In this document: positions 15,932-64,000 of the stretch, in pieces | How the letters are laid out: each line of letters begins with the position of its first letter | Numbering within the stretch: the first letter of the stretch is position 1 | Source: Clostridiales bacterium Firm_16 | Lineage (GTDB): Bacteria; Bacillota; Clostridia; Saccharofermentanales; Saccharofermentanaceae | Reading direction: 5' to 3' | Length of the DNA stretch: 64,000 nt | NCBI GenBank assembly: GCA_001604185.1 | Contig: LVAV01000098.1 | Location: 46,999 to 110,998, forward strand | Program-made: the position numbers and the translations under genes | Notes under the pieces: generated by a model | The model's database searches: none | What the model saw: only the letters and a program-made list of their open reading frames with translations | Told to the model about the DNA's origin: nothing

Positions 15932-18900
15932 TCACTGAAAATATGGAAGTGGCGGAAACCTATCCCCATACGACGTCACAACTACCCCACTTGCTGTATC
16001 AGAGAACGAATTATACGTTCCATAATCGTCCCCCCAAAATCTTGTCGAATAGCAATAGCCAAACTTATAACCAGTTTTCCCAGACCATGCAAAGACAACA
16101 CTGACAGATTTATGTTTAGCGAACTCTTTGGCAATACAAGTCCTTCCTAGTCCTCGATGATAGCCATCTCGTCCAGTAAAACAGACCTGAATATCTAAAA
16201 AACGCACTTCACACAACTGAGTTAATTTTCCTAAAACATCTTCAGATCTCAATGTTACATCACTTGCCATGCAATCAAAATCTATGGAGTTTTCATTATT
16301 GCCATGTGCAATAATCACACATGATTCGACACTAGAATAAGCAATTTTCTCACTTAACTGCTCTTTCTCCAAATCACAAGTCAAATGATTGAGCACATAC
16401 CATGGAACTTCATAAGAATAAAAATCTTTTTCCAATTCATCATATACCACTTTAACTTTCTCGCTCAGAGGGCTGTTTTCCCATATGTCGATTACCACAA
16501 CATTTTTGTCTTTGGCTTTAAACGCATTGATATATGGTTGTCTCATACGACTTAAAGAATCTTCCCCAGGATTATCTTTTCCAATTAATATGTAATTGAT
16601 TGTCCCATTCTTGCGTCTCGGTGTCGCATCCTCTCCATCATTGGCATGATCTCCATCCGTATCAGTTTCACTCGGATCAGAAATCACACTGTAAATTACC
16701 CAATCTCCCTGTCCAAAGCCGGCAAACGTAAGATAATTAGTATCATTTGAGTAAACCGGCTCGCCATCTACAGTAACATTTCCATGGTCATCCACAGACA
16801 GCTTGATCTCCGCACCCATTTCTTCTCTATCTGGTACACTGTCCTTGTCAGAATTTGGCTTTTCAGGATCAGAGTGATATATTGTGCCATTTGTTCCTAC
16901 CATTCCTTTATCTTCAGCAATATCAAGCAGACCGTCTTTATCTCCATCTGCGCCTTGATTCAGAAGGTATAGACGACAAAATTCATCATATGGGTTTTCC
17001 ACTCTATCACAGTCTATCAGACCACCTCTGGAATTAGCGTTGAAGATACTTATCGCATCAGATGAATAAGAACTATCAGGAAGTTCGAACAGATAGGTTG
17101 ACGGATATCCCCATCCGCTCAACTTTTTTATCCCGTCCGCAAGCATTGCTGCTCGTCCAGAATAAGAATAGGACAGTTTATTCTGGAAAATGACGGAAAC
17201 AATCTCATGCGAATCAAGAAATTTAATTCTGTTATCCAGATGAGGGGCTATAAAAAGCCAAGAAACCTCTCCACTTCCGGTCATACCACTCACAGAAGGA
17301 CAATAACTACTAATGCTTTCGTAAATGGATTTAAGTTCCGCCTTATCATTTATCGGATCCCAACCATTTTGCGTGTAATTACCAAAAACCCAGTTCATGC
17401 TCCAATCTACAAATTGAATACGATCAAATGGACGAAGATTATCAATGAATTGATATACGATTTCTGTCTGAGCGTTTAGTTGCTCACTCGACATTGTGTC
17501 GTCATATTGAACGCAAAGTACGTAATCAATTCCTCTGGATAGACCATTACTATCCGGATTTGTTGCTCTGTTTTGGCCATGTCTTTGAAGTTCATATGTC
17601 CAACGATAGTTCCATGCAACTTTCCAGTAAAGCATATACTCGCTGAAATGAGTAGTTTGGCAGGAAACCGTATTGTTATTCGTATCTACGGTTGCACCAC
17701 AATCTACAAAGAGCCCACTTTCTTCGTCGTACCAAAGAATACCCAAATCCTCTTCTCTAAACTCTTCATCGCATGTACTATCTTCAAGATTCATACTTTC
17801 TGTAGATAACTTAGTCTCGTCATAGTGAAAAGTGATCGTTGCTTCATCAAAGCTACCCTCATATTCGATACTGACAGGAACACCTACGAGGCTTACGAGG
17901 TCACTGCAGTATGAATCTTCGTTATACATATCCTTAATGGTCATAGCAGAACCCAGGCATCCTGTACCTGTAAGAGATACCTCAACTTTGTTAACCACAG
18001 GTCTTTCCGTATCTTCTATCACTTCACTTCGTACCTGAGGAAAGCGCTCCTGTCCATCCGGGATTCCGTCTCCATCACTATCATTACTCGTCGGACTTAA
18101 TCCAAGTTTTAGTTCATCTCCGTCTTCGATACCGTCTCCGTCTGTATCCTCATTAAGAGGATCTGTTCCATACATATGGATCTCCTCGCCATCCGAGATT
18201 CCATCAACATCAGAATCATCAGTCCACGTATAGGTTTCATGTTCGATTTCTTCCGCTAACGTCAGTCCATCACTGTCGTCATCTTCCTGCGAATCCGGAA
18301 TACCGTCGCCATCCGAATCGGCGGAAAGAGGATCCATACCCAATGCTACTTCCACACCATCTTCAATCCCGTCGTTGTCAGAATCCTTGGAATTCGGATC
18401 TGTTCCGAGTTGTTTCTCATAATAGTCCGGTACTCCGTCACCATCTGTGTCCAGTTCAAGATCAATATCCGGATCATCCTGTTGCTGTCCTTGTCCAACA
18501 CGCTCCAGAATATCGGCTATACCGTTATTGTTCTCATCCTGAGTCAGCATTATAGGATAAGTAATCGTTCTTACGGAAAGAAGTGTCAGCTGCAAGCCTG
18601 TTCCTTCTCCTCCATTGAAAGTTAAGGGAAGACTGGAATGCCCTTCGATATTTGCATTATTACCATTGTTGGAAAGTGTATAGCTCCCATCTTCATCCTG
18701 AGTAAGGATAGCATTGGATACTTCCGTTATCGGTCGGTTTGATGAAAAACGGATCGTCCAGTCCATGATCGGGAAATCAACATTGCTTTTCAGGGTAAGA
18801 CTTCCATTACAGCCTTGTCCCCAATCTGAATACAACTGTGTATTCACAGAGAGTGAAGATAGTTCTAATTCAAAAGTGTTCGTATTCAGGAACATAAAAG

Positions 18901-19327
18901 TAGGTATATCACTTACAGCCGATCCATCCGTCGATTTCACGGTCATACCGAAGGAAACCTTCTGGTTAGGGAGGATATCCATATTATGTCCACCGTTCAT
19001 GACGGTATACATATTATTCGCATGTTCGATAAGATTAGCTCCCCAGATTCCTTCTATCTCGTAAGGAAGATTGAAAGAAACAAACCAGTTATGGATCGTT
19101 TTCTCTCCGGTATTTGTGATCTCAAACTGAAGATTCGCATGATCCCCCCAGGAAGATGTAGTAGAAACCTGGGAAGATATTGAAAGATCTTCCTGATAAG
19201 AATAACAGTTGTCAATTGAAACGGTATTATCTGCCAAGACTGACGGATGGGATGCAGAAACTAGGATCGTCATGGCCAGGATTAGACTAACGAGTCGGAA
19301 AAGAGATACTCTTTTACATATAGACAA
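15932..19327 (-). CDS. Secreted 1131-aa multidomain protein: signal peptide, two CBM2-like modules, TSP3-type calcium-binding repeats, unknown middle, C-terminal His/Cys domain
   Basis: The signal peptide is MSICKRVSLFRLVSLILAMTILVSASHPSVLA-DN. Two modules show the W.G....L.F.I.N.G...I..W pattern. There are at least 8 DxDxDGxxDxxE repeats (for example DTDGDGVPDYYE, DSDNDGIEDGVE, DSDGDGIPDSQE). The start is a TTG with no obvious SD, so it is uncertain. Confidence 0.8.
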   Translation of the reverse strand: MSICKRVSLFRLVSLILAMTILVSASHPSVLADNTVSIDNCYSYQEDLSISSQVSTTSSWGDHANLQFEITNTGEKTIHNWFVSFNLPYEIEGIWGANLIEHANNMYTVMNGGHNMDILPNQKVSFGMTVKSTDGSAVSDIPTFMFLNTNTFELELSSLSVNTQLYSDWGQGCNGSLTLKSNVDFPIMDWTIRFSSNRPITEVSNAILTQDEDGSYTLSNNGNNANIEGHSSLPLTFNGGEGTGLQLTLLSVRTITYPIMLTQDENNNGIADILERVGQGQQQDDPDIDLELDTDGDGVPDYYEKQLGTDPNSKDSDNDGIEDGVEVALGMDPLSADSDGDGIPDSQEDDDSDGLTLAEEIEHETYTWTDDSDVDGISDGEEIHMYGTDPLNEDTDGDGIEDGDELKLGLSPTSNDSDGDGIPDGQERFPQVRSEVIEDTERPVVNKVEVSLTGTGCLGSAMTIKDMYNEDSYCSDLVSLVGVPVSIEYEGSFDEATITFHYDETKLSTESMNLEDSTCDEEFREEDLGILWYDEESGLFVDCGATVDTNNNTVSCQTTHFSEYMLYWKVAWNYRWTYELQRHGQNRATNPDSNGLSRGIDYVLCVQYDDTMSSEQLNAQTEIVYQFIDNLRPFDRIQFVDWSMNWVFGNYTQNGWDPINDKAELKSIYESISSYCPSVSGMTGSGEVSWLFIAPHLDNRIKFLDSHEIVSVIFQNKLSYSYSGRAAMLADGIKKLSGWGYPSTYLFELPDSSYSSDAISIFNANSRGGLIDCDRVENPYDEFCRLYLLNQGADGDKDGLLDIAEDKGMVGTNGTIYHSDPEKPNSDKDSVPDREEMGAEIKLSVDDHGNVTVDGEPVYSNDTNYLTFAGFGQGDWVIYSVISDPSETDTDGDHANDGEDATPRRKNGTINYILIGKDNPGEDSLSRMRQPYINAFKAKDKNVVVIDIWENSPLSEKVKVVYDELEKDFYSYEVPWYVLNHLTCDLEKEQLSEKIAYSSVESCVIIAHGNNENSIDFDCMASDVTLRSEDVLGKLTQLCEVRFLDIQVCFTGRDGYHRGLGRTCIAKEFAKHKSVSVVFAWSGKTGYKFGYCYSTRFWGDDYGTYNSFSDTASGVVVTSYGDRFPPLPYFQ

Positions 19328-50710: not shown

Positions 50711-51835
50711 ATGAGTTTTCGAAGCAAGCTTTTCTCACAAAAGAAGATCTATGATCTCGAACCGACAAACGAGCTGTTTTTGCGTGCTATGAAAGAAAAC
50801 TGTGCATTCCATTATGCGCATTGTGAAGAATACAGAAAAGTATTAGATGGCGAGGGTTTTTCTCCGGAAGACCTCGCCTCTTTTTCTGATCTTGCAAAGC
50901 TTCCTTTCCTGCCCACGCTTTTCTTTAAAAAGCACCACATCTATTCTCTTCCGAACCGGCGTCTTCCGATCAAGGTGACATCGTCCGGAACAAGCGGTCA
51001 CTTCAGCCGCATGGGATTTGCATGGAGTGAGCTTTGGTATGCACTGAAGATGTCACTGCGGGTAGTCAGCAAGCGTCATCTGATTTCTCTTCGTCCGTGC
51101 AACTATATTGTTTTCGGATACAAACCCAACCGTCACAACAAGACAGGTGTTACCAAGACCGCCTTTATAACGACACTTCTGGCACCGGCCCGGCATCGTA
51201 CCTATGCCTTGAAATACCACGATGGAAAATACGAACCGGATCTGGAAGGCGTGATCAAGGCTATTGAAAAATATGCGAAAAAGAAGACTCCTGTCCGCTT
51301 CATGGGATTTCCTTCCTATACGACTTTTGTCATGCAGATGATGGAAGATCGAAAAGCTTTTGTACAGCTTCCCAAGGGATCCAAGATCCTGCTCGCCGGT
51401 GGCTGGAAACAGTTCTATGCCGAGGAAGTGGAAAAGAGTGTCTTCTATGATCTGGCCAAGCGTGTGCTTGGAATCACAGATGATAACATCGTCGAGTTTT
51501 TCGGTGCGGTTGAACATCCGATCCTTTATTGCGACTGCCCACACCACCATTTCCATGTTCCCGTTTATGGCCGTGTCCTGATCCGGGACGTCAATACTCT
51601 GGAACCCGTTCCCAATGGCACGCCGGGTCTTGTGAATCTTCTGACGCCGCTTGTAAAAGGTACACCATTGACAAGCGTCATGACAGACGATCTTGGAATC
51701 CTGCATGACGGCAGCACATGCCCCTGCGGACAGAATTCCCCGTACCTTGAGATCCTTGGCCGTGTTGGTCTGAAAGACATCAAGACCTGTGCGGCAGGTG
51801 CAGCAGAATATCTGGATAAAGGAGGCCTGAAATGA
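50711..51835 (+). CDS. LuxE-family acyl-protein synthetase / adenylate-forming enzyme
   Basis: 374 aa with TSSGTSG (AMP-binding P-loop-like motif) and the overall layout of LuxE-type proteins. It starts 23 nt after leuS. Confidence 0.7.
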   Translation: MSFRSKLFSQKKIYDLEPTNELFLRAMKENCAFHYAHCEEYRKVLDGEGFSPEDLASFSDLAKLPFLPTLFFKKHHIYSLPNRRLPIKVTSSGTSGHFSRMGFAWSELWYALKMSLRVVSKRHLISLRPCNYIVFGYKPNRHNKTGVTKTAFITTLLAPARHRTYALKYHDGKYEPDLEGVIKAIEKYAKKKTPVRFMGFPSYTTFVMQMMEDRKAFVQLPKGSKILLAGGWKQFYAEEVEKSVFYDLAKRVLGITDDNIVEFFGAVEHPILYCDCPHHHFHVPVYGRVLIRDVNTLEPVPNGTPGLVNLLTPLVKGTPLTSVMTDDLGILHDGSTCPCGQNSPYLEILGRVGLKDIKTCAAGAAEYLDKGGLK

Positions 51836-53106
51836 TTCTTTTCAACGGAACTCTTTTCGAGACCAAAGAGCAGAACCGTCTTCTTGACGAACTGCCTTCG
51901 AAACTGTCAGACACACTCCTGCACCAGACGCTCGACCGTGAAAAAGTAATACGGGCTTTTGACAACATCAGCCAGCGGCTGGCTGCCGGTGAATTTGAAT
52001 CACTTCTCCAGTCTGTGGATCCGGATTCTGCTTCTCTATATATGGATCAGATTGTCCGCATGATGAGCCGTGATTATCTTCAGAAAAAAACAGAGATCGA
52101 GTTTCACGGTGTAAGAAACGACAGCGAAAAGATCCAGACGCAGGAAGTCCCGCTTGGCGTAGTTTTCCATATCGCCGCGGGTAATATGGACGTGCTTCCG
52201 ATTGCCAGTATCGGAGAAGGTCTTCTTGCCGGAAACATCAACATTCTTAAACTTCCAAGTGTCGACCATGGCCTTACGATCCAGGCACTCAAGATGCTTG
52301 TCGATACTGAACCGGCGCTGAAGGACTTCATCTATGTATTTGATACACCGTCCTCCGATATCGCTGCTATTAAAAAACTGGCCGATCTTTCTGACGGCAT
52401 TGCCATCTGGGGCGGCGACGAAGTCGTGCACGCAGTAAGAGCTTTTGCCAAACCGGGAACAAGGCTGATCGAATGGGGTCACAAACTTGGATTTGCCTAT
52501 ATCTCCGGATACGAAAACGAAGAGGAAGAACTTACCGAACTTGCAGATCACATCCTGATGACCCGCCAGTTACTCTGCAGTTCCTGTCAGGTCATTTACA
52601 TTGATACTGATCAATATGATGAGGCGCTGGCTTTTGCCGGAAGATTTCTTCCCTATCTGGAACGCGCATTTGAAAAGCACCCGATCCGGGAGATCGGTGG
52701 TGTGGCTGAGCTTACACTCAGGCGGTATGAAGAAAGGATCGAGAAACATCTTCAAGGCGAAGAAACTTCGGATGAAAAGAGATCCCGTTTTCAGGGGCAG
52801 CATACAAGCGTTACGGTCAAAAAAGAACCGGACCTGGAATTGTCGTACATGTACGGAAATGTGATCGTGAAACCTCTCCCCGCCAAGAATATGACCGATG
52901 TACTCCGCAAAAGCAAAGGATATCTTCAGACAGCCGGCCTGATCTGCAGTCCTGAGAAAAGAGATGCGCTTACCCGTCAGCTGACCCGCTGCGGTGTCCA
53001 ACGCGTTACACGTGCCGGACACATGTCGAGTCTTTTTGAAGGAGAAGCGCATGATGGCGAATTTGCACTCGCACGTTACAGTCGTTTCATCAATATAGAG
53101 AACTAA
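51832..53106 (+). CDS. LuxC-family acyl-CoA reductase-like protein
   Basis: 424 aa and ATGA-coupled to the LuxE-like gene. It has an aldehyde-dehydrogenase-superfamily-like layout with HIAAGNMDVLPI and a conserved LLCSSCQVIY (candidate catalytic Cys). The call comes from pairing and motif resemblance. Confidence 0.65.
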   Translation: MILFNGTLFETKEQNRLLDELPSKLSDTLLHQTLDREKVIRAFDNISQRLAAGEFESLLQSVDPDSASLYMDQIVRMMSRDYLQKKTEIEFHGVRNDSEKIQTQEVPLGVVFHIAAGNMDVLPIASIGEGLLAGNINILKLPSVDHGLTIQALKMLVDTEPALKDFIYVFDTPSSDIAAIKKLADLSDGIAIWGGDEVVHAVRAFAKPGTRLIEWGHKLGFAYISGYENEEEELTELADHILMTRQLLCSSCQVIYIDTDQYDEALAFAGRFLPYLERAFEKHPIREIGGVAELTLRRYEERIEKHLQGEETSDEKRSRFQGQHTSVTVKKEPDLELSYMYGNVIVKPLPAKNMTDVLRKSKGYLQTAGLICSPEKRDALTRQLTRCGVQRVTRAGHMSSLFEGEAHDGEFALARYSRFINIEN

Positions 53107-53284: not shown

Positions 53285-56200
53285 TTAAAGCGGCGTTTCG
53301 CCTACAGTCTCATCCATCGCTTTCTGTCCGGAAGACTTCTTCTTCGGTTCGTCTACGGGCGAAGTCTTCACTGTTTCCTCAGATGTCTGGAGACTGGACG
53401 ATCCCACCGAGACCGCATCCTGGCTCCATACCGTATAGATGATCGCCGTATCCCAAATCTCACCTTTGACCCACAACGTGGTATCGTCATAGTAGTGCAG
53501 TTCTTCCTCTGTCTGCGGCTCAAATATCTGTGACGGGTCATCCGATCCGGGATACTGACTTCCGTTGTTTCCCATGATGAAATACCATTCATAGCTCTGT
53601 CCTTCACGTGGTGCGACATCCGGCATAGCCGCCTTCACAGAACTCCAGGTACATCCGTTCTCAAACTGCGCCGTTTTCAGTGTTGTACCGTTGGCGGAAC
53701 CGTCTCTCCAGATTACCGTGAAGTACTCCGGTTCCGGCTCCGGTGCTTCCACTACCGTAAGCTGGACATCTACTTCTGCATAGGTATCAAGATCCTTATC
53801 TGCAGGTCGGATATGGACGGACAGCTTAACGCCAGGCTCAATATCACCGATACGTGTACCAGGTTTGCTCCACGTCACTGTCGCCCCCTCCAGATCCCAG
53901 CGGTCATTGGACATGCAGCCATTGCTTGTGGCGGCCGGCCACCAATAAGAGAGGATATAATCATAGTCTGACAGTTTTCCATCCGGATCATCGAGGAATT
54001 CGGCCATGCTGATCGTCAGCGTATCATCTTCATTGATCAGTGTCGGCTTAACCTTGATGACTTTGTTTTCCAGTACTTTGCCGCAGACTGAACATGTTAC
54101 GACTGAAGATCCGACATGCCATCCTTCTGTGCAGTATCCATCCTCATTCAGGATCGGATAGGGTTCCGTACGCACGGTTTTTGTAACATGGGCATCGGGG
54201 TCAACCGGGATCACCCAGGAATCCTTGGCGATCTCATGCTGACACTTCTCGTCGCTGAAATACTTATCGCAACGTTTGCAGTGCCAGTAAGCACTGTTTC
54301 CGGCCTCTTTACATGTAGCGGCTTTGGCTTTGTAAGAAACCAGGTCATGACCGAGAGCCGGGATCGTCTTCTTCACACGAGAGAGTTCCTCATGACAGGT
54401 TGCGCAGTAGACGACCTCATCGAAACTGCCGGCTTCCTCACAAGTCGGGTCAACGTAGTTCTCCATCGTCGGCTCCATCGGATCATGCTCGTGAACAACG
54501 GTCAGTGTCGCGATCATCTCAACATACTGCTCGGTATCGGAAGGCGTGATGCGTACCTTAAAGACATCACCTGCCTGGATCTCTTCCAGTCTGACAGAGC
54601 TGTAATTCTCTGCCCAGGTCAGAGTTGCGTCGACGACCTGACCTTTTCCGTTACCGGAAAGTTCTCCGACATAAGCCCACAGCTGCAGATCCTTAAACGG
54701 ATCCAGTTCACTGAGATAGGTCTTCTGTTCAGCCTCATACATTTCAGATGCATAGTTCCAGAGAACCGTCTTCTCGATAGCGGCTCCGCCGTCTTTGGCT
54801 TTGTATTCACTGCCAAGTTTCGGCTTCTTTATTATCCGCAGTTTCTCTGTCTTTGTATCTGTGTATGTTTCACCTTCGAAAACAACGGTTGCGGTATAGA
54901 CAACGGAACCTTCTTCCGTCTCCGTAGGTTCTGTACGTACGCTCGTGATCGTCGCTTGTACTTTTTCCGTATGGTCAGCATCGTTTTTACATGTAAATGT
55001 TGCCGTTGCTGCCGTGTAGCCTGTCCATGTCCAACCGATCAGTTCATAGTCGTGACCGAATGCAGGGATCGCCTTACCTTCAGAAATCATCGCACCACAG
55101 CTTGTGCAATACGTATCACCGGTATATCCGTCTTCCGTACAGGTTGCTTCCTTGGCATCCCGGAGTTCAGTTTCTCCGACATGGTTATGCGGATCGATCG
55201 GGAGTTCTTCGGTCTTTGTCTTGCCACAATCCGTACAGGTATAGGTTATGCTGCCTGTATGTATGCAGGTGGCCGGAGTGATGACCGTTCCCTCATCCCA
55301 CGTATGCTCATGCTCAACGAACTGCGGATAGAGCGTCACATCTTCATACGGCGGGTACTCATATGTCTTACCGTCGGCATCTGCCCAGCCCATAAACGTA
55401 AAGCCTTTTCGGCTGATCTCCTTCGGAGGAGTCAGTTTTCTGCCTACCCAGTTGGTTGTCACGACATCGCCGTCATCATACTTCCACGTTACCTTCACCA
55501 TTACAGGAGAACGACGAAGAATATATGTACTGTTGTAAGCATAGAACAGCGTGCTGTTGTATACAGGTTTCCAATTGTTTTTCTGTGCTTTGACATTATC
55601 GATACCGGTAGTGTAGATGCGTAAGAAATCATATGTATACCTTGTATCCGAAGTATACTTAGAAACCGCCTCCGGCATATTCTCCAGCGCCTTGTCTCCT
55701 GCAAGCGTTTCCTGACTTCTGAACTCGCTTGCCAGTGAAACATACTTACCGTTACCGGTGTCATACAGCACCCAGTCACATTGATACGTATATATACCGT
55801 ACAGAGTCAGGTCCTTCTTGGGCATCTCGTACTCTTCGTTGATCGTGGTCAGAAGATCACCCTTCGTCGTAGTCCAGTTGATGCCCTGATTATTGGTCTT
55901 GAAAGGACAAGTGGAGAGCGGATTTGTTCCTGCCTTGGCCTTGGAAGTTTTTGTCTGCCCGTCCAGGATCCAGGTAATCGTGTATTCGCCACCGACAAAT
56001 TTCGGATACAGTGTCAGATTTTTTGCCGGCATGGTCTTGTACTGATTTCCGTCTTTATCCTGCCAATACTGGAAAGTGTATCCTTGGCGGACCGGCGTAG
56101 ACGGCGCTTTGAGTGCTTCACCGTACTTAACTTTAGTAGTCTTGTCACCGTCATCGTATTTCCATGTGACTGTAAAGGTTTTCGGTGTGCGGATAGCAAA

Positions 56201-59200
56201 GAACACCGTGTCTTTTGCCGGGATCTTAGTCGTGTCATCCATTTTGCGCCACTTGCTCTTATCGCCGATGAACTCACTGAAAGCCGGCATATTGATCAAT
56301 TCTATTCCTTTGTCGGATGTGTATTTTTCACTGAAGTCCCAATCTCTGACTACTTCTCTGGTCTTAACATTGCGGACATTAATACAATTCGTATTCTGTG
56401 CCGGATAATAATACCAGTCGTAGTTATAGGCATCGTTCTGAAGTGATTTTTTCAAAGCATCAGGGATACTATTCACGGCAGAGGCGTTAGCCGATATTTT
56501 CTGCTCATAGGCAGATGCCAACGGCTTTTTACTATCAGCCTTCTCGTTCAGGATATGCCAGTCTGACTCCGATTCATAGAAATTGAAGTACAGATCGGCC
56601 TTTGTGCTCGGGGCATGCATCATAAAATACAGGTACTCATCGCCCGGGAACACCATAAGCCATCCTCGGCTGTTCTTATCGCCCTGGACGACTTCGCTCT
56701 CATAGAGAAGACCGCGGAACAACTCCACAAACAGATTGGATTTTCCTTCTGTGAATCGAGTTAAATATGCTTCCCAGGCGAGTTCGTCATACGTCTCTTT
56801 GGCAAATGCCAGATTGTAACCAGGATAACGCTCTACAAGGTTGTCCACGTCCATGTAGTATAGCACGCCGTCCAGGCCGTCAAACTCGATGGTCTCTTTC
56901 TTGTTGTAATAAGACTTCGGATTTGCAAACATAGGCTGACATTCATCTTTGAATTCCAGGCCCTTCCCCTTCGTTTTGCAGAGGTATACATCCGCAGTAC
57001 CCTTGACCGGTGTACCTGTCCAGTGTACTTTGACTGTTCGCTCGATCTTGCGGGTATTCAGACCAAAGCCTGCTCCGTAGTTCAGAAGGGACTTGGTCTT
57101 TGCCGGTTCACCCTGATACCAGGTAAAAGTGAACTCACCCCAGAGCTCTGTGTCTTGCACAGAGTTCGGCTTGGCGTAGATCATATTGGTGACAGGATCG
57201 TACAGGAATGCGCCCTTCTTCTTATCCTCTTCGGTAGCATCGGAGAAGTCCTTGCCCTTTGGTGTAAAGTCTACATGGAAGTTTCTCTCATCCTTCTGAA
57301 CATAGTTCATGCCCCATGCGGTGAAGCTGCTGCTGCCGCCTACTGCCACACTTCTGTCCATGTTATCGCTGTCGATATCGCCGGTATCGATCTCCATGAA
57401 CTGAATATTGAACAGATCATCCGGTACTTTGATGGAAGCGCCACCAATAACTTTCGTGTCTGTGTTTTTCTCGTTTTTGTTCTTTTCCGTCCGTGCTTCG
57501 ATGGTCAGATTCAGTTTCTCGTCGTCATCTTCTATCTCGAAGTCCAGGGCGCAGAACTCATCTCCCAATGACAATAGCGGCCATCGGACATCATAGATAT
57601 CAAAACGTTGCTCCAGTTTGCCCTCTCCCATCTGCATCTTGAAATCGATATCAAGGTACAGTCCGAACTGAGCCAGAAGTGAACCGAACATCTCGGTGCT
57701 GGAGCCCTTTCCACTCTCCCACTTATAACCGACGTAGAAGTATCCGAAGAATTCCAGATACACACCGATCTCTGCGGTAACACCAAGAGATGCGAGAGAT
57801 GTGGACAGTAAGCCGATTCGGAAGTCAAACTCGAATCCTACACGGATACCTACCATACCGAAAATGAAGAAGTCTACCTGGAAATTAGGCGTCTCCAGAT
57901 CGCCGCACGTAGAACTGCTGCTCGGATGGAATACAGTAAAGTTGGCAGTGATCTGCTTTGCATTCCCGTATGTAATGGACACACCAAGCATAACGTTCAA
58001 CTTAAATTTCACGACAAAGTTGATACCAAGGCTCAGAGCAATTACATGCAGCGGATCCGCCGGCAGTTCAAACTTTGCCAGTGGTTTATTCACCAGAGTC
58101 ACGTATTTGGCATCGCTATCCTGGATAAAGCCGGCATACTTTTCCTCGAAGCTGCCACCTACGCTGTTATGCATCTCCTCCGTTCCTTCGCCGTCTTTAC
58201 CGTAGTCTTTATTATCATTTTTCTTCGTAATGGTTTTGTTCGTAGCGCCACCCGGAATGTGTGTGATACCCAGTCCGTCAGAACCGAACTTACTGAGCTT
58301 GGCAATACCTTGAATACCGGTACCCAGCTTCTTCACATCCAGATAAGCTTTACCTCGCTTGCCCGGAGCAGCCGTGGTTTCGTCCTTCGGCATCAGCTCC
58401 TTGACCGGCGGTTCCTCTTTATCCGCATCCACCGTCTGTACAGTGACAGTAATACCAGCGCCGACATAAATGCCCGCGTGCAGTCCTACCGTACCGCCGA
58501 CGTCGTAAATATACGGGAAGATTTTCCACTTACGCCATTCCACTTCCCACTTAATGGTCAGACCGAATGCCACTTCGACTTCGATCATGGCCACTACCGT
58601 GATCTTGATATCGGCGTCGTCGTTTATCTTGATCTTGATGGTCATCTCTGCCGCCAGTTCAGCACGAAGACCTGTACCGGTAAAGTGCTGCAGGCCAAGG
58701 CCCATCAAGAATGACAGCTTCGGTGGCCATTCCACTTCCACCTTGCTTCCGCCTGCAAGCTGCTGGACTTCTTCGAGAGAGATCTCTCCACCGCCATCGC
58801 GCTGGAATTTGATTTCCTTCAATGCATCCGAATATTTAGAATCCGGAAGTACGGCTTCATCGTTGCCGCTGATCAGTTCACCGATGTACTCCGCAGAGTC
58901 CTCCAGGAAACCACTTTCTTCAACGTCCTTCTTAATTGCTTCGCCTACTTCTTTCAATTCTTCATCTGACATAGGAACCGGAACATTGTCCAGCTGCATG
59001 AACATATCAGTAGAACGACGCAGTTTCTGCTCGCTGACCTCATCATAAAGAACCTGCAGTCCGCCGTCTTTCTCTTCCACAGCCGTAATGCAGCCATAAC
59101 CAGTCAGTTCCATGGAGTCAGCATTCAAGCTGCCTTTGTAAACCGCGATAAAATCACCCGGCTCCACTACTGTATCAGAGTCAAGGCCCGCATCTTTGTA

Positions 59201-60760
59201 TTGACCGTTGCCAAACTGAAGCTGATCGGCAGAAATGAAAATCTTTCCGTCTTTAAAACTGCCGTCATCCTGAACAGGAATGATGTCCGGCAGGAAGATC
59301 ACTTCTTCGAAATCCGGAGTTTCGTACGCGTACTGACCCTTTCCCTTCACTTCAGTGATCTTAAAATATCCGATGGAACCGTCCACAGATCCGTCAGAGC
59401 TCAGTTTGCCGTCATATACTGCAACTTTCGTTCCGACTTCGATGGACTTGTCTCCATTATAGGTCAGAACACCTTTATCGTCATTGGGAACGACGGTCAT
59501 GTCATCGCCGTCCGAATCTGCCTTGAAGAGACCGTTATCCAGCGATACACCGGATACCTGATCAAGAGGCAGGAACACGACACTGCTGTTCAGTTTCATG
59601 TTATTAAAGTCATCCTGATGGACGGTGATGTTGTAGTAAACAACATATTCCGTGCATTCAATATTGTCTCGGAAGAATCGCAATAATGTGGTATCCAGTA
59701 TCTCGACCTGATGCATATCACCACGATTCCATCCACCTGGGCAGCGCACTGAATAATGGGCAGCAGGAAGCTCCTTCAGGACATCTGCGAAGCGTTCCTC
59801 AAGATTGATCACTTCATCTCCCATTTCCTCGAATTTGCTGTCTTTCTCTATACCTGTCTGCTGCAGTTCCACGTCTGACAGAAGACCGGCAAGCTGTGTG
59901 AGTGTGATCTTCTTCGGATCCAGCTTAGCCTTATAGACACGGTCCAGCAGGTCAGCCGCTTCCATTGCTTCGGAAAAATCTGACTCCATCGGAGCGTAGA
60001 ATAATACCAGTTCAGCAATGACCGCATCTGTCAATGCCGGCACCTCTTCGCCTGCTTCATCTTTTGTAACGATCGCCTTCAGCACGTCCGTCAGCTTATC
60101 GCCAAGTTCACCGGCCTGCGCCTTCAGGCAGGCATCCTTAGCCAATGTGCGTACACGGGTGTCCGGAATCAGATTGGCCATATCCGGAGCAAGTCTTTCC
60201 AGTACGAACTCTTCCGCACCTTCCACCTTAGAAAGGTTTGTTGCCTTCATGCGCTCTTTGATCTGCTCTTCAGACAGTCCGTAGGCAACGATCTCCATGG
60301 CAAAGTCCGGCTCGACATCCAATGTAGAAATATAGTTGATACGGAATGTATCATCATAGTTCTGCAATGGTGCAAAAGACGGATACAACGTCATATTACG
60401 ATCCACGCTGTCTGCTCCGTCTGCAGGCTTGGTAAGTGCGGCATCGTAATACCAACCGGCAAATCCATAGTTTTCACGAGTCGGTTCCGCTACTGCATAG
60501 ATCAGTGTACCTGCCGGAAGCATCATCGGTTCCGGAAGTTTGATCTCGTCTTTTTCATCCTGGGTAAGACCCTTCGGCAGCGCAAAGCTGACCTCATAGT
60601 AAACGGTGTTTTCGTCCTTGGTATCCTGCACGGACTTATCAGACGATGCCGAATACGGATCGGTCGCCGCCGCGATATCACGGAACGGCAGGATGCCGAT
60701 CACCATGATGAACGTCAGCAGCCAGGATATCGTTCGCTTTTTATTCCACCTAATGCTCAT
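53285..60760 (-). CDS. Giant secreted protein (2491 aa): signal peptide, Listeria-Bacteroides (Flg_new) repeats, central amphipathic beta block, Cys-rich modules
   Basis: The signal peptide is MSIRWNKKRTISWLLTFIMVIGILPFRDIAAA. Flg_new-type repeats are present (GFAGWYYDA...MTLYPSF, GYTFQYWQDKDGN...LTLYPKF, GFTFMGWADADGK...VTLYPQF). Repeated H.H...C...G...Y.C..CG Cys modules occur. RBS GGAGG lies 8 nt upstream. I saw no LPXTG, SLH or C-terminal TM. Confidence 0.85.
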   Translation of the reverse strand: MSIRWNKKRTISWLLTFIMVIGILPFRDIAAATDPYSASSDKSVQDTKDENTVYYEVSFALPKGLTQDEKDEIKLPEPMMLPAGTLIYAVAEPTRENYGFAGWYYDAALTKPADGADSVDRNMTLYPSFAPLQNYDDTFRINYISTLDVEPDFAMEIVAYGLSEEQIKERMKATNLSKVEGAEEFVLERLAPDMANLIPDTRVRTLAKDACLKAQAGELGDKLTDVLKAIVTKDEAGEEVPALTDAVIAELVLFYAPMESDFSEAMEAADLLDRVYKAKLDPKKITLTQLAGLLSDVELQQTGIEKDSKFEEMGDEVINLEERFADVLKELPAAHYSVRCPGGWNRGDMHQVEILDTTLLRFFRDNIECTEYVVYYNITVHQDDFNNMKLNSSVVFLPLDQVSGVSLDNGLFKADSDGDDMTVVPNDDKGVLTYNGDKSIEVGTKVAVYDGKLSSDGSVDGSIGYFKITEVKGKGQYAYETPDFEEVIFLPDIIPVQDDGSFKDGKIFISADQLQFGNGQYKDAGLDSDTVVEPGDFIAVYKGSLNADSMELTGYGCITAVEEKDGGLQVLYDEVSEQKLRRSTDMFMQLDNVPVPMSDEELKEVGEAIKKDVEESGFLEDSAEYIGELISGNDEAVLPDSKYSDALKEIKFQRDGGGEISLEEVQQLAGGSKVEVEWPPKLSFLMGLGLQHFTGTGLRAELAAEMTIKIKINDDADIKITVVAMIEVEVAFGLTIKWEVEWRKWKIFPYIYDVGGTVGLHAGIYVGAGITVTVQTVDADKEEPPVKELMPKDETTAAPGKRGKAYLDVKKLGTGIQGIAKLSKFGSDGLGITHIPGGATNKTITKKNDNKDYGKDGEGTEEMHNSVGGSFEEKYAGFIQDSDAKYVTLVNKPLAKFELPADPLHVIALSLGINFVVKFKLNVMLGVSITYGNAKQITANFTVFHPSSSSTCGDLETPNFQVDFFIFGMVGIRVGFEFDFRIGLLSTSLASLGVTAEIGVYLEFFGYFYVGYKWESGKGSSTEMFGSLLAQFGLYLDIDFKMQMGEGKLEQRFDIYDVRWPLLSLGDEFCALDFEIEDDDEKLNLTIEARTEKNKNEKNTDTKVIGGASIKVPDDLFNIQFMEIDTGDIDSDNMDRSVAVGGSSSFTAWGMNYVQKDERNFHVDFTPKGKDFSDATEEDKKKGAFLYDPVTNMIYAKPNSVQDTELWGEFTFTWYQGEPAKTKSLLNYGAGFGLNTRKIERTVKVHWTGTPVKGTADVYLCKTKGKGLEFKDECQPMFANPKSYYNKKETIEFDGLDGVLYYMDVDNLVERYPGYNLAFAKETYDELAWEAYLTRFTEGKSNLFVELFRGLLYESEVVQGDKNSRGWLMVFPGDEYLYFMMHAPSTKADLYFNFYESESDWHILNEKADSKKPLASAYEQKISANASAVNSIPDALKKSLQNDAYNYDWYYYPAQNTNCINVRNVKTREVVRDWDFSEKYTSDKGIELINMPAFSEFIGDKSKWRKMDDTTKIPAKDTVFFAIRTPKTFTVTWKYDDGDKTTKVKYGEALKAPSTPVRQGYTFQYWQDKDGNQYKTMPAKNLTLYPKFVGGEYTITWILDGQTKTSKAKAGTNPLSTCPFKTNNQGINWTTTKGDLLTTINEEYEMPKKDLTLYGIYTYQCDWVLYDTGNGKYVSLASEFRSQETLAGDKALENMPEAVSKYTSDTRYTYDFLRIYTTGIDNVKAQKNNWKPVYNSTLFYAYNSTYILRRSPVMVKVTWKYDDGDVVTTNWVGRKLTPPKEISRKGFTFMGWADADGKTYEYPPYEDVTLYPQFVEHEHTWDEGTVITPATCIHTGSITYTCTDCGKTKTEELPIDPHNHVGETELRDAKEATCTEDGYTGDTYCTSCGAMISEGKAIPAFGHDYELIGWTWTGYTAATATFTCKNDADHTEKVQATITSVRTEPTETEEGSVVYTATVVFEGETYTDTKTEKLRIIKKPKLGSEYKAKDGGAAIEKTVLWNYASEMYEAEQKTYLSELDPFKDLQLWAYVGELSGNGKGQVVDATLTWAENYSSVRLEEIQAGDVFKVRITPSDTEQYVEMIATLTVVHEHDPMEPTMENYVDPTCEEAGSFDEVVYCATCHEELSRVKKTIPALGHDLVSYKAKAATCKEAGNSAYWHCKRCDKYFSDEKCQHEIAKDSWVIPVDPDAHVTKTVRTEPYPILNEDGYCTEGWHVGSSVVTCSVCGKVLENKVIKVKPTLINEDDTLTISMAEFLDDPDGKLSDYDYILSYWWPAATSNGCMSNDRWDLEGATVTWSKPGTRIGDIEPGVKLSVHIRPADKDLDTYAEVDVQLTVVEAPEPEPEYFTVIWRDGSANGTTLKTAQFENGCTWSSVKAAMPDVAPREGQSYEWYFIMGNNGSQYPGSDDPSQIFEPQTEEELHYYDDTTLWVKGEIWDTAIIYTVWSQDAVSVGSSSLQTSEETVKTSPVDEPKKKSSGQKAMDETVGETPL

Positions 60761-60799
60761 ATTTTTACTCCTCCATCTCCTATGGCAAATTTAGTTTTC

Positions 60800-61528
60800 T
60801 CAGTCGTTAAGAAGTTCCAGGATCTTATCCGCAGGTGTTGCCAGATTCAGATTCTGCGCTTTTTCATAGGTACCCATGACCATACCCGTCACTTGTCCCT
60901 GATTGTTTAAAACCGGTCCGCCACTACACCCCGCGGACACCGGTGCGGAAAACAGGATCCAGTCCGCCTCCTGCGCCTTCCACATGCCACATACATTTCC
61001 CTTACTTACCAGATTCGTTAATCCGAACTGGCTTCCTATTACCAGGATTTCTTCGCCTCGCAAGGGTCTGCTTGTCGCAACTGGAAGGGCTTTCAGTCCG
61101 GCATCCTCCGGCAGCGGACAGATGGCTATGTCTGCATCTGTGTCGGCCACCGACGCGTGATCGATACGGAAAGAAGTTCCGTCATCCCGCCAGGCGGTCA
61201 TGTATGCCATGTTATGGATCACGTGGGCAGCTGTGACCAGCACGACCGGATCCCCTATGGCAAAGCCGCTGCCTGTGCCGATCTTATCACCGTTCGCGTC
61301 GAAAACTTCAAGTCGCACCGCACTGGCCGCCGCTTTTTCGATCGATTCCGGATCCGAAAGGAAGGTATCGTTTCTCTCCTCCGGTACAGAAACGGTATCA
61401 CGCTGGATCTCATCTGATGCCGTTCCGTCCGTATCCCGGGTCAGGCAGGCGCCCGTTACGAGACCGAACAGTATCGGCATACAAAGCAGCCATACAAGAT
61501 ACCGTTGCCTTTGATTCTTTCGTTTCAT
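60800..61528 (-). CDS. Signal-anchored trypsin-fold (S1 family) serine protease
   Basis: Catalytic triad context VTAAHVI, DADIAIC and GCSGGPVLN, with an N-terminal hydrophobic anchor LVWLLCMPILFGLVTGA. It is ATGA-coupled to the upstream gene. Confidence 0.8.
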   Translation of the reverse strand: MKRKNQRQRYLVWLLCMPILFGLVTGACLTRDTDGTASDEIQRDTVSVPEERNDTFLSDPESIEKAAASAVRLEVFDANGDKIGTGSGFAIGDPVVLVTAAHVIHNMAYMTAWRDDGTSFRIDHASVADTDADIAICPLPEDAGLKALPVATSRPLRGEEILVIGSQFGLTNLVSKGNVCGMWKAQEADWILFSAPVSAGCSGGPVLNNQGQVTGMVMGTYEKAQNLNLATPADKILELLND

Positions 61529-61866
61529 GTGTCACCTTCTTTCCGTTCACCGTCAGGATCTTTCTTCTGTTTGCGCTTTCTCATGTATATGCATAGCAGT
61601 GTCACCGTTACACCTAATGCAAAAGCAATCACCGCCGCCAGTACATATCCTCCGGCTTCCCGGGTCAGAAGTAGAGAGCCATACACCGATTCATCGGCAG
61701 TACCGGTCTCCATTCTCGTCATGGCAGCGATCACGAGAACAAGTGCGACACATATCGTCCCTGTTGCAACAGAGAGCACCCGGCAGAATCTGCGTTCTTT
61801 CCGTACACGGATCTGCTCGCTTCGATGAAGGATCTCCGACAAAGCTTCCTCCGCTGTGTATTTCAT
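61525..61866 (-). CDS. Small 2-TM protein, paralog B of the anti-sigma-like protein at 63446
   Basis: 113 aa. It shares CVAL, YGSLLL, GYV and IAFALGV.VTLL blocks and the same helix/TM/loop/TM layout with the 108-aa protein. Confidence 0.6.
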   Translation of the reverse strand: MKYTAEEALSEILHRSEQIRVRKERRFCRVLSVATGTICVALVLVIAAMTRMETGTADESVYGSLLLTREAGGYVLAAVIAFALGVTVTLLCIYMRKRKQKKDPDGERKEGDT

Positions 61867-61976
61867 TGCATTCTCACCTCCAAACGCATCGTCGTTCTTG
61901 TTCGCCTTTTACTACTTAGTAACAGTTCCCGTCGGATTTACTCATACGATTTTTCATTTTTTTCGCTTTTTTTTGC

Positions 61977-62008
61977 AAAAAACACCGCCGCCCCGGAAGG
62001 GCAGCGGT
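61977..62008 (-). terminator. Rho-independent terminator after the PrsW-like gene
   Basis: The minus strand reads ACCGCTGCCC-ttccg-GGGCGGCGGT followed by GTTTTTT. Confidence 0.65.
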
Positions 62009-62043
62009 TTGCAGGATTTCTTATTCCAATTTTTTCTCGAGTT

Positions 62044-62676
62044 TTATTCCATCGTCTTCTCGAGTTTCCGGTACAGGAAGTACAACCCGACAGTTGCCAC
62101 CAACGGCAACAGATACCCGAGGGTCCTCGGCACACCGGGCTCAGAAACAAGCAGATTATAAAGGGCATGGAATGTCATGGCTATGGAAAGACCGCCCGCG
62201 ACGGCCGGGAAAGAGAATACCCGCAGGCGCTTGGCAATAATGAACCATATACAAAGCGACAGGATACTCTCAACATGCATGACGCCCACGGCGAGTCCAC
62301 GGATCAGGATATAGGTCACGCTTTCTGCTCCGAAGGTCAGAATGTAGCAGCAATTCTCGAAGGTGGCAAATCCCGTACCTATTGCTACCGCAAGCATCGT
62401 CATCGTACGATCCTCCGGTTCAAACAGAACCGCGAAGAAAAGGAGCGGTAAAAGCTTCATGAGTTCCTCCACCACAGGTGAAAGGAAAATGGATGTGTCG
62501 TTGGCACTCATGCCCGTGACCAGATTCAGGAATCCGCCGATATAGGCAGAGAGCAGACACATGCCCATACCCAGCAGAAATGCCGTCACATAGCTACGGA
62601 CTTTTCCTCGGACGAACAGAGTGGATACCAGAAGCGGAATGGCAATGCACAGGAGAATGTGTTCAGCATAGATCAT
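62044..62676 (-). CDS. PrsW-family intramembrane protease-like protein
   Basis: 210-aa polytopic protein with VVEELMK (EExxK), GFATFEN and FHALYN, the three PrsW signature blocks. It is ATGA-coupled to the upstream gene. Confidence 0.6.
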   Translation of the reverse strand: MIYAEHILLCIAIPLLVSTLFVRGKVRSYVTAFLLGMGMCLLSAYIGGFLNLVTGMSANDTSIFLSPVVEELMKLLPLLFFAVLFEPEDRTMTMLAVAIGTGFATFENCCYILTFGAESVTYILIRGLAVGVMHVESILSLCIWFIIAKRLRVFSFPAVAGGLSIAMTFHALYNLLVSEPGVPRTLGYLLPLVATVGLYFLYRKLEKTME

Positions 62677-63449
62677 GCCTGCGCCACCTCCCTTCGGAGT
62701 GCCATAAGCATCAACGGGAAACTAATCGTGGCCATCATAAAAAACGCCATATAAAAGTATCCGTCACTCATATACATAGATATAATCGACCATGCGAATG
62801 CCGCAAAAGCGCGGCTGACCATCTGGGAGGCCTGTCGTTCTGTCCGGTAAGCCACGACTGCACGAATAATCGAATACGTGGTCATCGCAAACAAAAGGCA
62901 ATAGCAGAAAAGATCCATAGGGGTTCGGACGGTCTCCGTCACGAAAAAAGTTCCGGTCTGTGCGCAGATGAGGATCAAGCTGGTAAGACCGGTCAGCCAC
63001 CATTCCCATCTGGGGAACACGTCTGACTGCTTGATCTCCGCCACCAGATGGCAGAGGAAATATCCCAGGACCACACCTGTGAGAATATCCTGGACCCATT
63101 CGCCGGACCACGCGATCCATAAGGCTGTATTGGCCGCCGCAAACAAAGCGGCAAAAAACATCTCCTTCGTGGCAAAACGGTGATGTGACCTGTTCTGCAA
63201 GGAGGCGCCAACCATCAAGAACATCGCCCACTCACCGATCTCATTCGCGGCAAAGGGCATGCGGGTCTCCGGACGCAAGAGAGAATAGGCCTGCCAATAC
63301 AGATTACTGAGCATGGCACTTGCTATGGCAAAAGCAAAGAATACCAGGTATACGGTATTCTTCTCATTTCTGATCAGTCGTATCGCGCCGAGGAAAACAA
63401 GTAACAGTACACTTGTCTGAAGCACATTCAGAATAGTTTCCGGACTCAT
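62673..63449 (-). CDS. Polytopic (about 7-8 TM) membrane protein, unknown family
   Basis: Highly hydrophobic ORF. I chose the start at ATG 63449 (MSPETIL), ATGA-overlapped with the upstream stop. The track's 63485 start would overlap by 40 nt. Confidence 0.6.
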   Translation of the reverse strand: MSPETILNVLQTSVLLLVFLGAIRLIRNEKNTVYLVFFAFAIASAMLSNLYWQAYSLLRPETRMPFAANEIGEWAMFLMVGASLQNRSHHRFATKEMFFAALFAAANTALWIAWSGEWVQDILTGVVLGYFLCHLVAEIKQSDVFPRWEWWLTGLTSLILICAQTGTFFVTETVRTPMDLFCYCLLFAMTTYSIIRAVVAYRTERQASQMVSRAFAAFAWSIISMYMSDGYFYMAFFMMATISFPLMLMALRREVAQA

Positions 63450-63772
63450 TTGCGGGCCTGCTCCTTCTGTCGCAGTCTCTTCCAATGAACACCGAGCAGC
63501 GTAACACAGACCCCAAGTGCAAAAGCGATCAAAGCGACCACAACGTAGCCTGTATACGGGGCCGCCAGCAGAAGACTACCGTACTGCTGCATCTCATTCT
63601 TCTGTGTCAAAGGTTCCAGCCGTGGGAGATAGACCGCAACAACGACCAGCAAAGCCACGCACACGCCTGACGCCGCCAGACTTGCATAGATTTGATTTCT
63701 GATCGTCCTTTTTTCCTTGACGACTTCAGCCCTCTTCATGATTTCCAGCAGCTGTTCATCAGTACTACGCAT
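63446..63772 (-). CDS. Small 2-TM protein in anti-sigma position (paralog A)
   Basis: 108 aa. Its start codon overlaps the sigma-factor stop (ATGCGTAG). It has an N-terminal charged helix and then two TM helices. Confidence 0.6.
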   Translation of the reverse strand: MRSTDEQLLEIMKRAEVVKEKRTIRNQIYASLAASGVCVALLVVVAVYLPRLEPLTQKNEMQQYGSLLLAAPYTGYVVVALIAFALGVCVTLLGVHWKRLRQKEQARK

Positions 63773-64000
63773 CTATAAATCCCATCCTTCTCAATTCGTC
63801 TTTCAACGCTTTCTTGCCTCGTTCTGCAAGATTATAGATCTGCTTTCGGTTCTTTCCCATTACGCGTCCGGCTTCCTCACAGGACATCTGTTCGAAGAAC
63901 AATAATGTCAGGATCTGCCGGTAATCCTCGTGAAGGTTCCATAGCGCTTGATAAAGCTGCCGGTTCCTCTCCTCTTTCAGGATATTCCATTCCGGTGTTT
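63765..64000 (-). CDS. Sigma-70-family (ECF-like) sigma factor, C-terminal part only (gene runs off the right edge)
   Basis: My own minus-strand translation gives ...EWNILKEERNRQLYQALWNLHEDYRQILTLLFFEQMSCEEAGRVMGKNRKQIYNLAERGKKALKDELRRMGFIDA, which is a region 4 HTH. Confidence 0.75.
   Translation of the reverse strand, partial: TPEWNILKEERNRQLYQALWNLHEDYRQILTLLFFEQMSCEEAGRVMGKNRKQIYNLAERGKKALKDELRRMGFIDA

Follow-up and report, generated by a model that had tools for sequence, protein, structure and literature searches.

A putative ECF sigma factor cassette with an in-operon PrsW-family protease and a nine-helix membrane protein, adjoining operons for large secreted proteins in rumen and gut Clostridia

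PrsW is the site-1 protease for the anti-sigma factor RsiW of the sigmaW system in Bacillus subtilis (PMC3482391), and in Clostridioides difficile, likewise a member of the Clostridia, the activity of CsfT and CsfU, sigma factors of the extracytoplasmic function (ECF) type, needs a PrsW-type protease, as reported in a later article (Ho and Ellermeier 2011, PMC3147581, cited in PMC7438776). Here a related arrangement is described from a 64,000-nucleotide (nt) stretch of Clostridiales bacterium Firm_16 (GenBank assembly GCA_001604185.1, contig LVAV01000098.1, positions 46,999 to 110,998), referred to as the window and numbered from its first letter. Genes for an ECF-type sigma factor, a 108-amino acid (aa) protein with two transmembrane helices (2-TM), a 258-aa protein with nine predicted helices (9-TM) and a 210-aa PrsW-family protease are followed by a second operon, headed by a 113-aa 2-TM paralogue and continuing into variable cargo genes. 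This cassette is a putative variant of ECF sigma control by regulated proteolysis that has not previously been described: literature searches turned up no account of it, as an initial sequence-only reading of the window had supposed, and the main text of the ECF reclassification paper does not mention PrsW.

The sigmaW/RsiW/PrsW system, in which RasP also takes part, shares with the cassette an ECF sigma factor, a membrane inhibitor (here a candidate one) and a PrsW-family protease as the presumed trigger. The two differ in that the protease gene here lies within the sigma operon and its product does not appear to be a PrsW orthologue, in that the candidate inhibitor is a 2-TM hairpin of ~110 aa with neither the zinc-binding anti-sigma domain nor the sizeable outer domain of RsiW, and in that a new nine-helix protein is an obligate partner. 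The sigma operon of the cassette is, moreover, predicted not to be autoregulated, and an inhibitor-like gene heads the target operon. To our knowledge, prsW is not encoded with the sigma genes in the CsfT/CsfU systems, where we know of no 9-TM protein, 2-TM paralogue or giant cargo; the anti-sigma factors there are conventional. A parallel of another kind is offered by Sigma28 (FliA) and FlgM, in which the inhibitor gene stands under a promoter of the sigma factor that it inhibits and feedback is tied to exported cargo; the Sigma28 promoter also resembles the cassette promoter in form (TAAA ... GCxxxTAA). However, FlgM is soluble and is removed by export, whereas the model for the cassette invokes proteolysis, and Sigma28 is a group-3 factor whose promoter has a 15-nt spacer, compared with 13 nt between the two blocks of the cassette promoter. 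Unlike both sigmaW and sigma28-FlgM, the module described here appears to be dedicated to one adjacent operon for a giant protein.

The SigI/RsgI pairs of Clostridium thermocellum resemble the cassette in forming paralogous sigma/membrane-sensor modules within single genomes of plant-fibre-degrading Clostridia, each with its own promoter specificity and with secreted or surface targets; two genomes in the present set likewise carry two cassettes. Those systems, however, use a sigma factor of the SigI-like family and a single-pass RsgI with carbohydrate-binding sensor domains, and they include no PrsW, 9-TM or 2-TM protein. The SigM-YhdL-YhdK and SigY-YxlCDE operons of B. subtilis encode membrane proteins of ~60-110 aa that are co-transcribed with an ECF sigma factor and jointly hold it, but no sequence relationship to these was detected, and those operons are autoregulated and encode no protease. 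A PrsW-family domain is also genomically tied to large secreted proteins in the PrsW-domain polymorphic toxins (Zhang et al. 2012, PMC3482391). There it is fused N-terminally to proteins with a variable C-terminal toxin, whereas the cassette PrsW is a stand-alone 210-aa protein of a regulatory operon, and the cargo has Sec signal peptides and contains no toxin domain detectable with Pfam in the window or the other loci; the cassette does not belong to that class.

Seven open reading frames (ORFs) occupy positions 53285 to 64000 of the window, all on the minus strand, and their coordinates, overlaps, motifs and hairpin are as the sequence-only reading had given them. The sigma gene is truncated by the window end, leaving the 3' part that encodes region 4 (63765..64000); the 108-aa gene (the 'up' copy, 63446..63772) begins with an ATG (63772-63770) ahead of the sigma TAG stop (63767-63765), so that the two genes overlap by 8 nt. 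An ATGA overlap at 63449-63446 leads into the 258-aa gene (62673..63449) and another at 62676-62673 into the PrsW gene (62044..62676), such that the four cassette genes are joined throughout by stop/start overlaps. A hairpin with a T-run (61977..62008) closes this regulatory operon. Beyond it lie a predicted sigma-dependent promoter (61916..61945) and the 113-aa gene (the 'dn' copy, 61525..61866), which heads the sigma-dependent operon and shares an ATGA (61528-61525) with the gene for a 242-aa S1 serine protease (60800..61528). The gene for a 2491-aa secreted giant (53285..60760), recognised from its ORF, signal peptide and Pfam content, begins 39 nt past the stop of the protease gene.

In a collection holding a single genome for each species, a profile of the 258-aa protein matched 130 loci, of which 80 were analysed by calling ORFs in each locus and classing them with phmmer against the window proteins; individual loci are cited below by L numbers. 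A locus was counted as evaluable where sigma and PrsW genes were present and followed by at least 700 nt, which left 69. Both units occur together in 62 of the 69, as the neighbourhood check suggested by the sequence-only reading required, in the order sigma, (2-TM), 9-TM, PrsW, then 2-TM and cargo, at identities of 32-79%. Because it recurs in dozens of divergent genomes, the arrangement is far beyond chance. The carriers are nearly all rumen or gut Clostridia of the Lachnospiraceae, Oscillospiraceae/Ruminococcaceae and Eubacterium, and include the cultured strains Eubacterium ruminantium FB3002 and Lachnospiraceae bacterium FE2018 and AD3010. Every locus contains the 9-TM protein by construction of the search, and the PrsW gene adjoins its gene in 76 of 78 loci.

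Two architectures were found. Type 1, as in the window, has sigma, 2-TM, 9-TM and PrsW genes followed by 2-TM and cargo genes (42/69 loci), and type 2 lacks the sigma-adjacent 2-TM gene, the 9-TM gene lying directly after or overlapping sigma (27/69 evaluable loci, 29 overall). ECF classifications take as the anti-sigma factor, by working definition, a co-transcribed membrane protein encoded at +1 of the sigma gene; this position is held by the 108-aa type in the window and 41 other loci and by the 9-TM protein in 29. A same-strand 2-TM paralogue follows PrsW in the same 62 of 69 loci, stands divergently upstream in three more and follows an insertion in L045. Because the sigma-adjacent copy is absent from type 2, the universal core consists of the sigma factor, the nine-helix protein, PrsW and the downstream 2-TM protein. 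The gene at the head of the second operon had been read as a copy of the sigma-adjacent one, and the two proteins are indeed paralogues (40% identity, E = 5e-21); it is, however, the downstream member that is near-universal and the sigma-adjacent one that is optional, and the downstream copy is therefore not a mere duplicate of an upstream anti-sigma factor. Nor do all seven genes form the conserved set: the S1 protease occurs in 4 loci and this giant in 7, and both are cargo specific to a lineage. Even the remotest 2-TM relatives that were found are encoded within such cassettes, one of them preceding a cargo gene for a 7342-aa protein.

Some loci depart from this pattern in other ways. L077 has neither the downstream 2-TM gene nor the promoter motif described below. 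In L083, an Oscillospiraceae locus with the most distant cassette found, a 208-aa membrane protein (L083:2806-3432) occupies the nine-helix slot, matching the 9-TM profile with an hhalign probability of 4% and a faint likeness around LYWL...PF...W, and a transposase-like gene follows PrsW. The cassette was also found in three bins assigned outside the Bacillota, L059 and L072 (labelled Fibrobacter) and L022 (labelled Coriobacteriales), with L059 on a contig of 218 kb; this placement may reflect horizontal transfer or mis-binning.

The 77-aa sigma fragment in the window is an ECF-type region 4 (NCBIfam TIGR02937, 40.5 bits), an identification that draws on its translation, its orthologues and promoter covariation. 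Full-length orthologues are 183-192 aa long and contain Sigma70_r2 and Sigma70_r4_2 only, in keeping with the size (about 180-200 aa) and domain content of ECF (group 4) factors; those of L001 and L007 score 81.0 and 73.2 bits against TIGR02937 (sigma70-ECF, cut-off 42.9), and the orthologues reach no equivalog-level NCBIfam family.

The interval from the PrsW gene to the downstream 2-TM gene contains a motif of two blocks, GTG(A/G)GTAAA-N13-GCAACTAA, with an invariant 13-nt spacer and one copy per locus. When all loci were scanned on both strands with a position weight matrix (PWM), 67 sites of at least 18 bits were obtained; 59 lie directly 5' of a 2-TM gene and three more lie directly after PrsW, before an inserted gene that precedes the 2-TM gene. 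The 64-kb window contains a single match (23.5 bits, 61948-61910), with -35 block ATGAGTAAA at 61945-61937, a 13-nt spacer at 61936-61924 and -10 block GTTACTAA at 61923-61916, 49 nt from the ATG of the 113-aa gene. The two blocks are not mutually complementary, and because there is no Rfam match in 60500-64000 the motif is not a known leader RNA.

Within the -35 block, base 4 shows perfect covariation with a single residue of the sigma factor of the same locus, located in helix two of the helix-turn-helix of region 4 (Q-x-Y-[N/H/S]-L): A pairs with Asn in 33 loci, G with His in 20 and C with Ser in 4, accounting for 57 of 57 loci and ~10 independent changes on the sigma tree. The window fits this code, with Asn (codon 63833-63831) and A (61942). 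In addition, C at -35 base 5 pairs with a Lys three residues further on (6/6), and at -10 base 2 G pairs with a Lys or Arg of the region-2.4 helix (11/11) and C with Met in 41 loci, across ~7 changes. The -10 types GCAACTAA and GCATTATATA follow the sequence of the sigma2 loop, with one deep split behind this pattern. The window block GTTACTAA has T at -10 base 2, a base seen in 0 of the 57 scored loci (C 45, G 11, A 1); the region-2.4 residue of the window sigma factor falls beyond the window end. Since the covarying residues lie where ECF sigma factors read the -35 and -10 elements, the covariation is taken to show that the cassette sigma factor uses the motif as its promoter and from it transcribes the 2-TM and cargo operon. 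PWM match, conservation and covariation thus agree with the earlier proposal that the second unit is the target of the first unit's sigma factor.

The same reading had expected a motif common to this promoter region and the region upstream of the sigma gene, and none is there in relatives: across 70 loci, the 300 nt 5' of sigma show no enrichment of the motif (mean best score -8.7, compared with -9.1 for shuffles), and TTGAAA-N17-TATAAT-like promoters precede many of the sigma genes. Because the motif is lacking 5' of sigma in relatives, the sigma operon of the cassette is taken, on this comparison, not to be autoregulated; the positive autoregulation that is typical of ECF sigma operons, although not strictly defining, was not found. 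Only L059 (L059:9175-9213) and L080 (L080:1720-1758) carry the motif 5' of sigma. Neither has a 2-TM gene after PrsW, the 2-TM gene of L059 being divergent, and the two are possible autoregulated variants.

The regulatory and target operons are separated by an intrinsic terminator, present in the window as first described and consisting of an 11-bp stem with eight GC pairs followed by GTTTTTTG (62008-61984; -27.8 kcal/mol, z = -2.8). Among 60 related loci, at least 35 have a strict hairpin with T-run between PrsW and the motif. Two genomes carry two cassettes each, one an Oribacterium metagenome-assembled genome (MAG; L005 and L071) and the other the Lachnospiraceae MAG RUI199 (L021 and L033). 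Because in both of them the specificity pair differs, one copy being His-G and the other Asn-A, sister cassettes are suggested to be insulated from each other; in L005 and L071 the -10 type differs as well.

The 210-aa protein had been placed in the PrsW family from its EExxK, FATFEN and HALYN blocks, all of which are present, and it matches Pfam PF13367 (PrsW-protease) at 63.9 bits (gathering cut-off 23.5, E = 1.9e-17). Residues E70, E71 and K74, F103, E107 and N108, H134, and H170 and N174 are invariant across 78 loci and correspond to the family motifs EExxK/R, FxxxE, H and HxxxN/D. The protein is thus a predicted glutamic-type intramembrane protease with intact catalytic motifs. Against NF033739, the orthologue group of B. 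subtilis PrsW, it scores 28.1 bits and does not reach the cut-off of 225; judged by these profiles, the cassette protease is not an orthologue of the B. subtilis enzyme.

The 258-aa protein represents a new family, defined here from homologues, their alignment and an AlphaFold model. None of its 274 homologues has a Pfam domain, and the family numbers 317 representatives among 1.84 billion clusters, all of ~260 aa and stand-alone. An upstream TTG start, which would give 270 aa, was rejected; because the homologues are 258 aa long, including one that is 100% identical, the ATG at 63449 is the start. Structure prediction with AlphaFold, which the sequence-only reading had proposed, gave a confident nine-helix bundle for this protein (predicted local distance difference test, pLDDT, 91.6; predicted TM-score 0.90). 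Foldseek found no fold match for the nine-helix model in the PDB (best E = 0.04, TM-score at most 0.34), and matches resembling G-protein-coupled receptors were dismissed as noise at that same score. Three motifs are invariant, RMPFAANEIGEW, LWIAWSGEWxQDILTG and MYMS. From the Lys/Arg count of the loops (positive-inside rule), the alignment and the model, the N-terminus is predicted to lie outside, and RMPFAANEIGEW, WSGEWxQD and MYMS would be on the outer face. The nine-helix protein is a candidate sensor or gate for the protease.

Both groups of 2-TM proteins, the 'up' copy recognised by its ORF, overlaps and family alignment and the 'dn' copy by paralogy and synteny, consist of an amphipathic N-terminal helix (M-[RK]-x-[ST]-x-[DE]-[EQ]-x-L-x-E-I-x-x-R), a first TM helix, a loop, a second TM helix and a basic tail. 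The outer loop is ~25 aa long and ends in YGS[LF][LI]L...GGYV (YGSLLL in the 108-aa protein). No significant match was found in Pfam, NCBIfam or PDB profiles. Matches to DUF6338, LapA and holins are sub-threshold similarities of TM segments, and a source label of 'DUF4179' on the distant relative P0202 was not reproduced. Phage_holin_3_6 is among these sub-threshold matches, in 5 of 25 members with a best E of 0.0026, and the size, topology and tail of the proteins are holin-like. The 108-aa protein is a candidate minimal anti-sigma factor.

Cargo after the downstream 2-TM gene, which is often ATGA-coupled to the first cargo gene, varies among loci, and in 47 of 55 cases the first cargo protein carries a signal peptide or an anchor. 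Other loci encode collagen-repeat/FG-GAP proteins, BspA-type leucine-rich repeat proteins, Flg_new proteins, pilin-like isopeptide-domain proteins and giants without Pfam domains; a few cases are non-secreted enzymes. In the window, the 242-aa protein has the Trypsin_2 fold (74 bits against 27.6, E = 2.7e-20) with an intact His/Asp/Ser triad (AAHV, DADIA, GCSGGP), as first noted, and is a membrane-anchored or lipoprotein-like enzyme of the Trypsin_2/HtrA-like kind by Pfam and NCBIfam; because it has no PDZ domain it is not a full HtrA. This protease was found only in L008/L009, L023, L045 and the window, and orthologues of the window giant, over the N-terminal ~1450 aa, only in L007, L008/9, L011, L023, L045 and L076.

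Taken together, these features are read as a signalling cassette complete in itself, whose output is the activation of a single neighbouring operon encoding a large secreted or surface protein; to this reading, with its 2-TM and PrsW release steps included, we give a probability of roughly 0.55. A housekeeping-type promoter, as seen in relatives, would drive the sigma, optional 2-TM, nine-helix and PrsW genes as one translationally coupled, terminator-ended operon, and the ECF sigma factor, as the covariation shows, reads the GTG(A/G)GTAAA-N13-GCAACTAA promoter directly downstream to express the 2-TM paralogue and the cargo, here the S1 protease and the 2491-aa giant. Their conserved amphipathic helix at the N-terminus may allow the 2-TM hairpins to tether the sigma factor at the membrane; negative feedback would come from the copy in the target operon, and a tighter OFF state from the optional sigma-adjacent one. 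An envelope or environmental cue would be sensed by the nine-helix protein, with its invariant acidic and aromatic motifs facing outward, whereupon PrsW, by analogy with PrsW and RsiW, would cleave the 2-TM protein within, or close to, the short outer loop (YGSxLL...GGY) and free the sigma factor. That the 2-TM proteins are anti-sigma factors cleaved by PrsW is inferred by analogy, and the linkage of the genes in one operon is consistent with such cleavage. A fuller version, tentative and somewhat short of even odds, regards the cassette as a portable module in which a constitutive ECF sigma factor is held by a minimal 2-TM anti-sigma factor encoded first in its own target operon, PrsW is gated by a nine-helix receptor of new fold, cassettes are insulated by a code of one residue to one base (Asn-A, His-G and Ser-C at -35; Met-C and Lys-G at -10), and each cassette serves one giant surface protein of rumen Clostridia.

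Several observations weigh against this signal-transduction reading. In the 29 loci without a sigma-adjacent 2-TM gene, the sigma factor would be free until its own inhibitor is transcribed. Covariation between sigma and 2-TM proteins, assessed in ~45-60 pairs by mutual information and after parsimony filtering, is no stronger than that between sigma and PrsW or sigma and the 9-TM protein, and a single deep split between clades dominates its signal. In the 2-TM proteins no anti-sigma domain is recognisable, such as the ASD, zf-HC2 or RskA-like domains of class I, their cytoplasmic N-terminus is only ~28 aa long, their outer loop is far shorter than the extracytoplasmic domain of RsiW that PrsW cuts, and no gene for a site-2 protease (RasP/M50) lies within the locus. 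In a rival reading, the nine-helix protein is itself the anti-sigma factor or tether on which PrsW acts, with the 2-TM proteins as accessory modulators that might, for example, inhibit the protease in a feedback loop or serve as co-anti-sigma subunits in the manner of YhdK with YhdL. Its gene directly follows sigma in the 29 type 2 loci, often overlapping the stop (gap -4), which is the usual anti-sigma position; it is present in all loci, again by construction of the search, with PrsW adjoining in nearly all of them; and ECF groups are known whose anti-sigma factors are polytopic, with 4 or 6 TM helices (PMC7826278). However, because its N-terminus enters the membrane at once, the protein has no cytoplasmic domain, its invariant motifs are placed by the positive-inside rule on the outer face, and the strongly conserved cytoplasmic helix is that of the 2-TM proteins. 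This alternative is considered unlikely.

Less likely again is that PrsW and the 9-TM protein process the cargo or assist its export, with the 2-TM proteins as holin- or chaperone-like export factors and the sigma factor regulated by other means. PrsW-family domains have been proposed to extrude and process the toxins to which they are fused (PMC3482391), and the frequent ATGA coupling of the 2-TM gene to the first cargo gene, together with the holin-like size, N-in/C-in topology and charged tail of its product and the sub-threshold holin matches, would fit such a role. The pathogenicity locus (PaLoc) of C. difficile likewise links genes for a sigma factor and for giant secreted proteins with one for a holin-like protein. 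Yet the cargo proteins mostly carry ordinary Sec-type signal peptides (the 47 of 55 above), and a shared cleavage site is unlikely because the cargo types are mutually unrelated. PrsW is unfused and shares its transcript with sigma, a terminator lying between it and the cargo, and in 42 loci an 'up' 2-TM copy has its translation coupled to that of sigma rather than to that of the cargo. A merely incidental adjacency, in which the sigma factor would regulate genes elsewhere and the downstream operon would have an unrelated promoter, might be read from the few loci without a downstream 2-TM gene (L077, L080); it is effectively refuted by the retention of gene order and motif in ~60 loci, by the perfect covariation of base and residue, and by the single copy of the motif in the window.

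The cassette is a small regulatory module with a wide distribution among rumen bacteria (the 130 loci and 317 representative clusters of the 9-TM family) and brings with it two protein families without annotation. It is rare for a PrsW-type protease to be encoded in one operon with the sigma pathway in which it presumably acts, an arrangement that would make the poorly understood gating of PrsW directly testable, and the residue-to-base code of regions 4.2 and 2.4 provides a checkable recognition rule and a possible source of orthogonal sigma/promoter pairs. The cassette also identifies a control of giant surface proteins, likely adhesins, in fibre-associated Clostridia.

The giant of the window consists of a signal peptide, an N-terminal core of ~1450 aa without a recognised fold, Flg_new (InlB B-repeat) repeats at ~1500-1700, the only Pfam matches in the protein, and Cys-rich repeats at ~1800-2250. 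Within the core, residues ~640-1110 (window 57400-58850) form two long, strongly hydrophobic alternating segments, predicted to be very long beta-strands, that are split by a Lys/Gly/Asp-rich linker and are unlike the flanking repeats. A homologue search with region 600-1200 returned only two proteins, and an AlphaFold model of these residues from three sequences had a pLDDT of 30.5. The Cys-rich units (window 54000-55400) contain paired CxxC motifs (e.g. TCIHTGSITYTCTDCGK) with sub-threshold zinc-ribbon matches only, and similar repeats link otherwise unrelated cargo proteins of other loci. Among unusual cargo elsewhere, a second ECF sigma factor lies directly after the 2-TM gene in L075 (L075:4512-5072), a possible cascade; a radical-SAM/SPASM enzyme is encoded in L022 (L022:12281-13738), and PI3/PI4-kinase-like proteins without signal peptides in L005 (L005:12069-14258) and L040 (L040:3012-5003).

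The remainder of the window is ordinary chromosome, including nusA-infB, metG, dnaE, uvrB, rho, leuS and thrS. Within the stretch of lowest GC content (0.40-0.43 compared with about 0.50), the minus-strand gene at 15932-19327 encodes a 1131-aa protein that combines a cellulose-binding domain (CBM_2) with TSP3 repeats of the bacterial kind. On the plus strand at 50711-53106, genes for a LuxE-like acyl-protein synthetase and a LuxC-like acyl-CoA reductase share a 4-nt overlap and run convergently towards the end of the giant gene.

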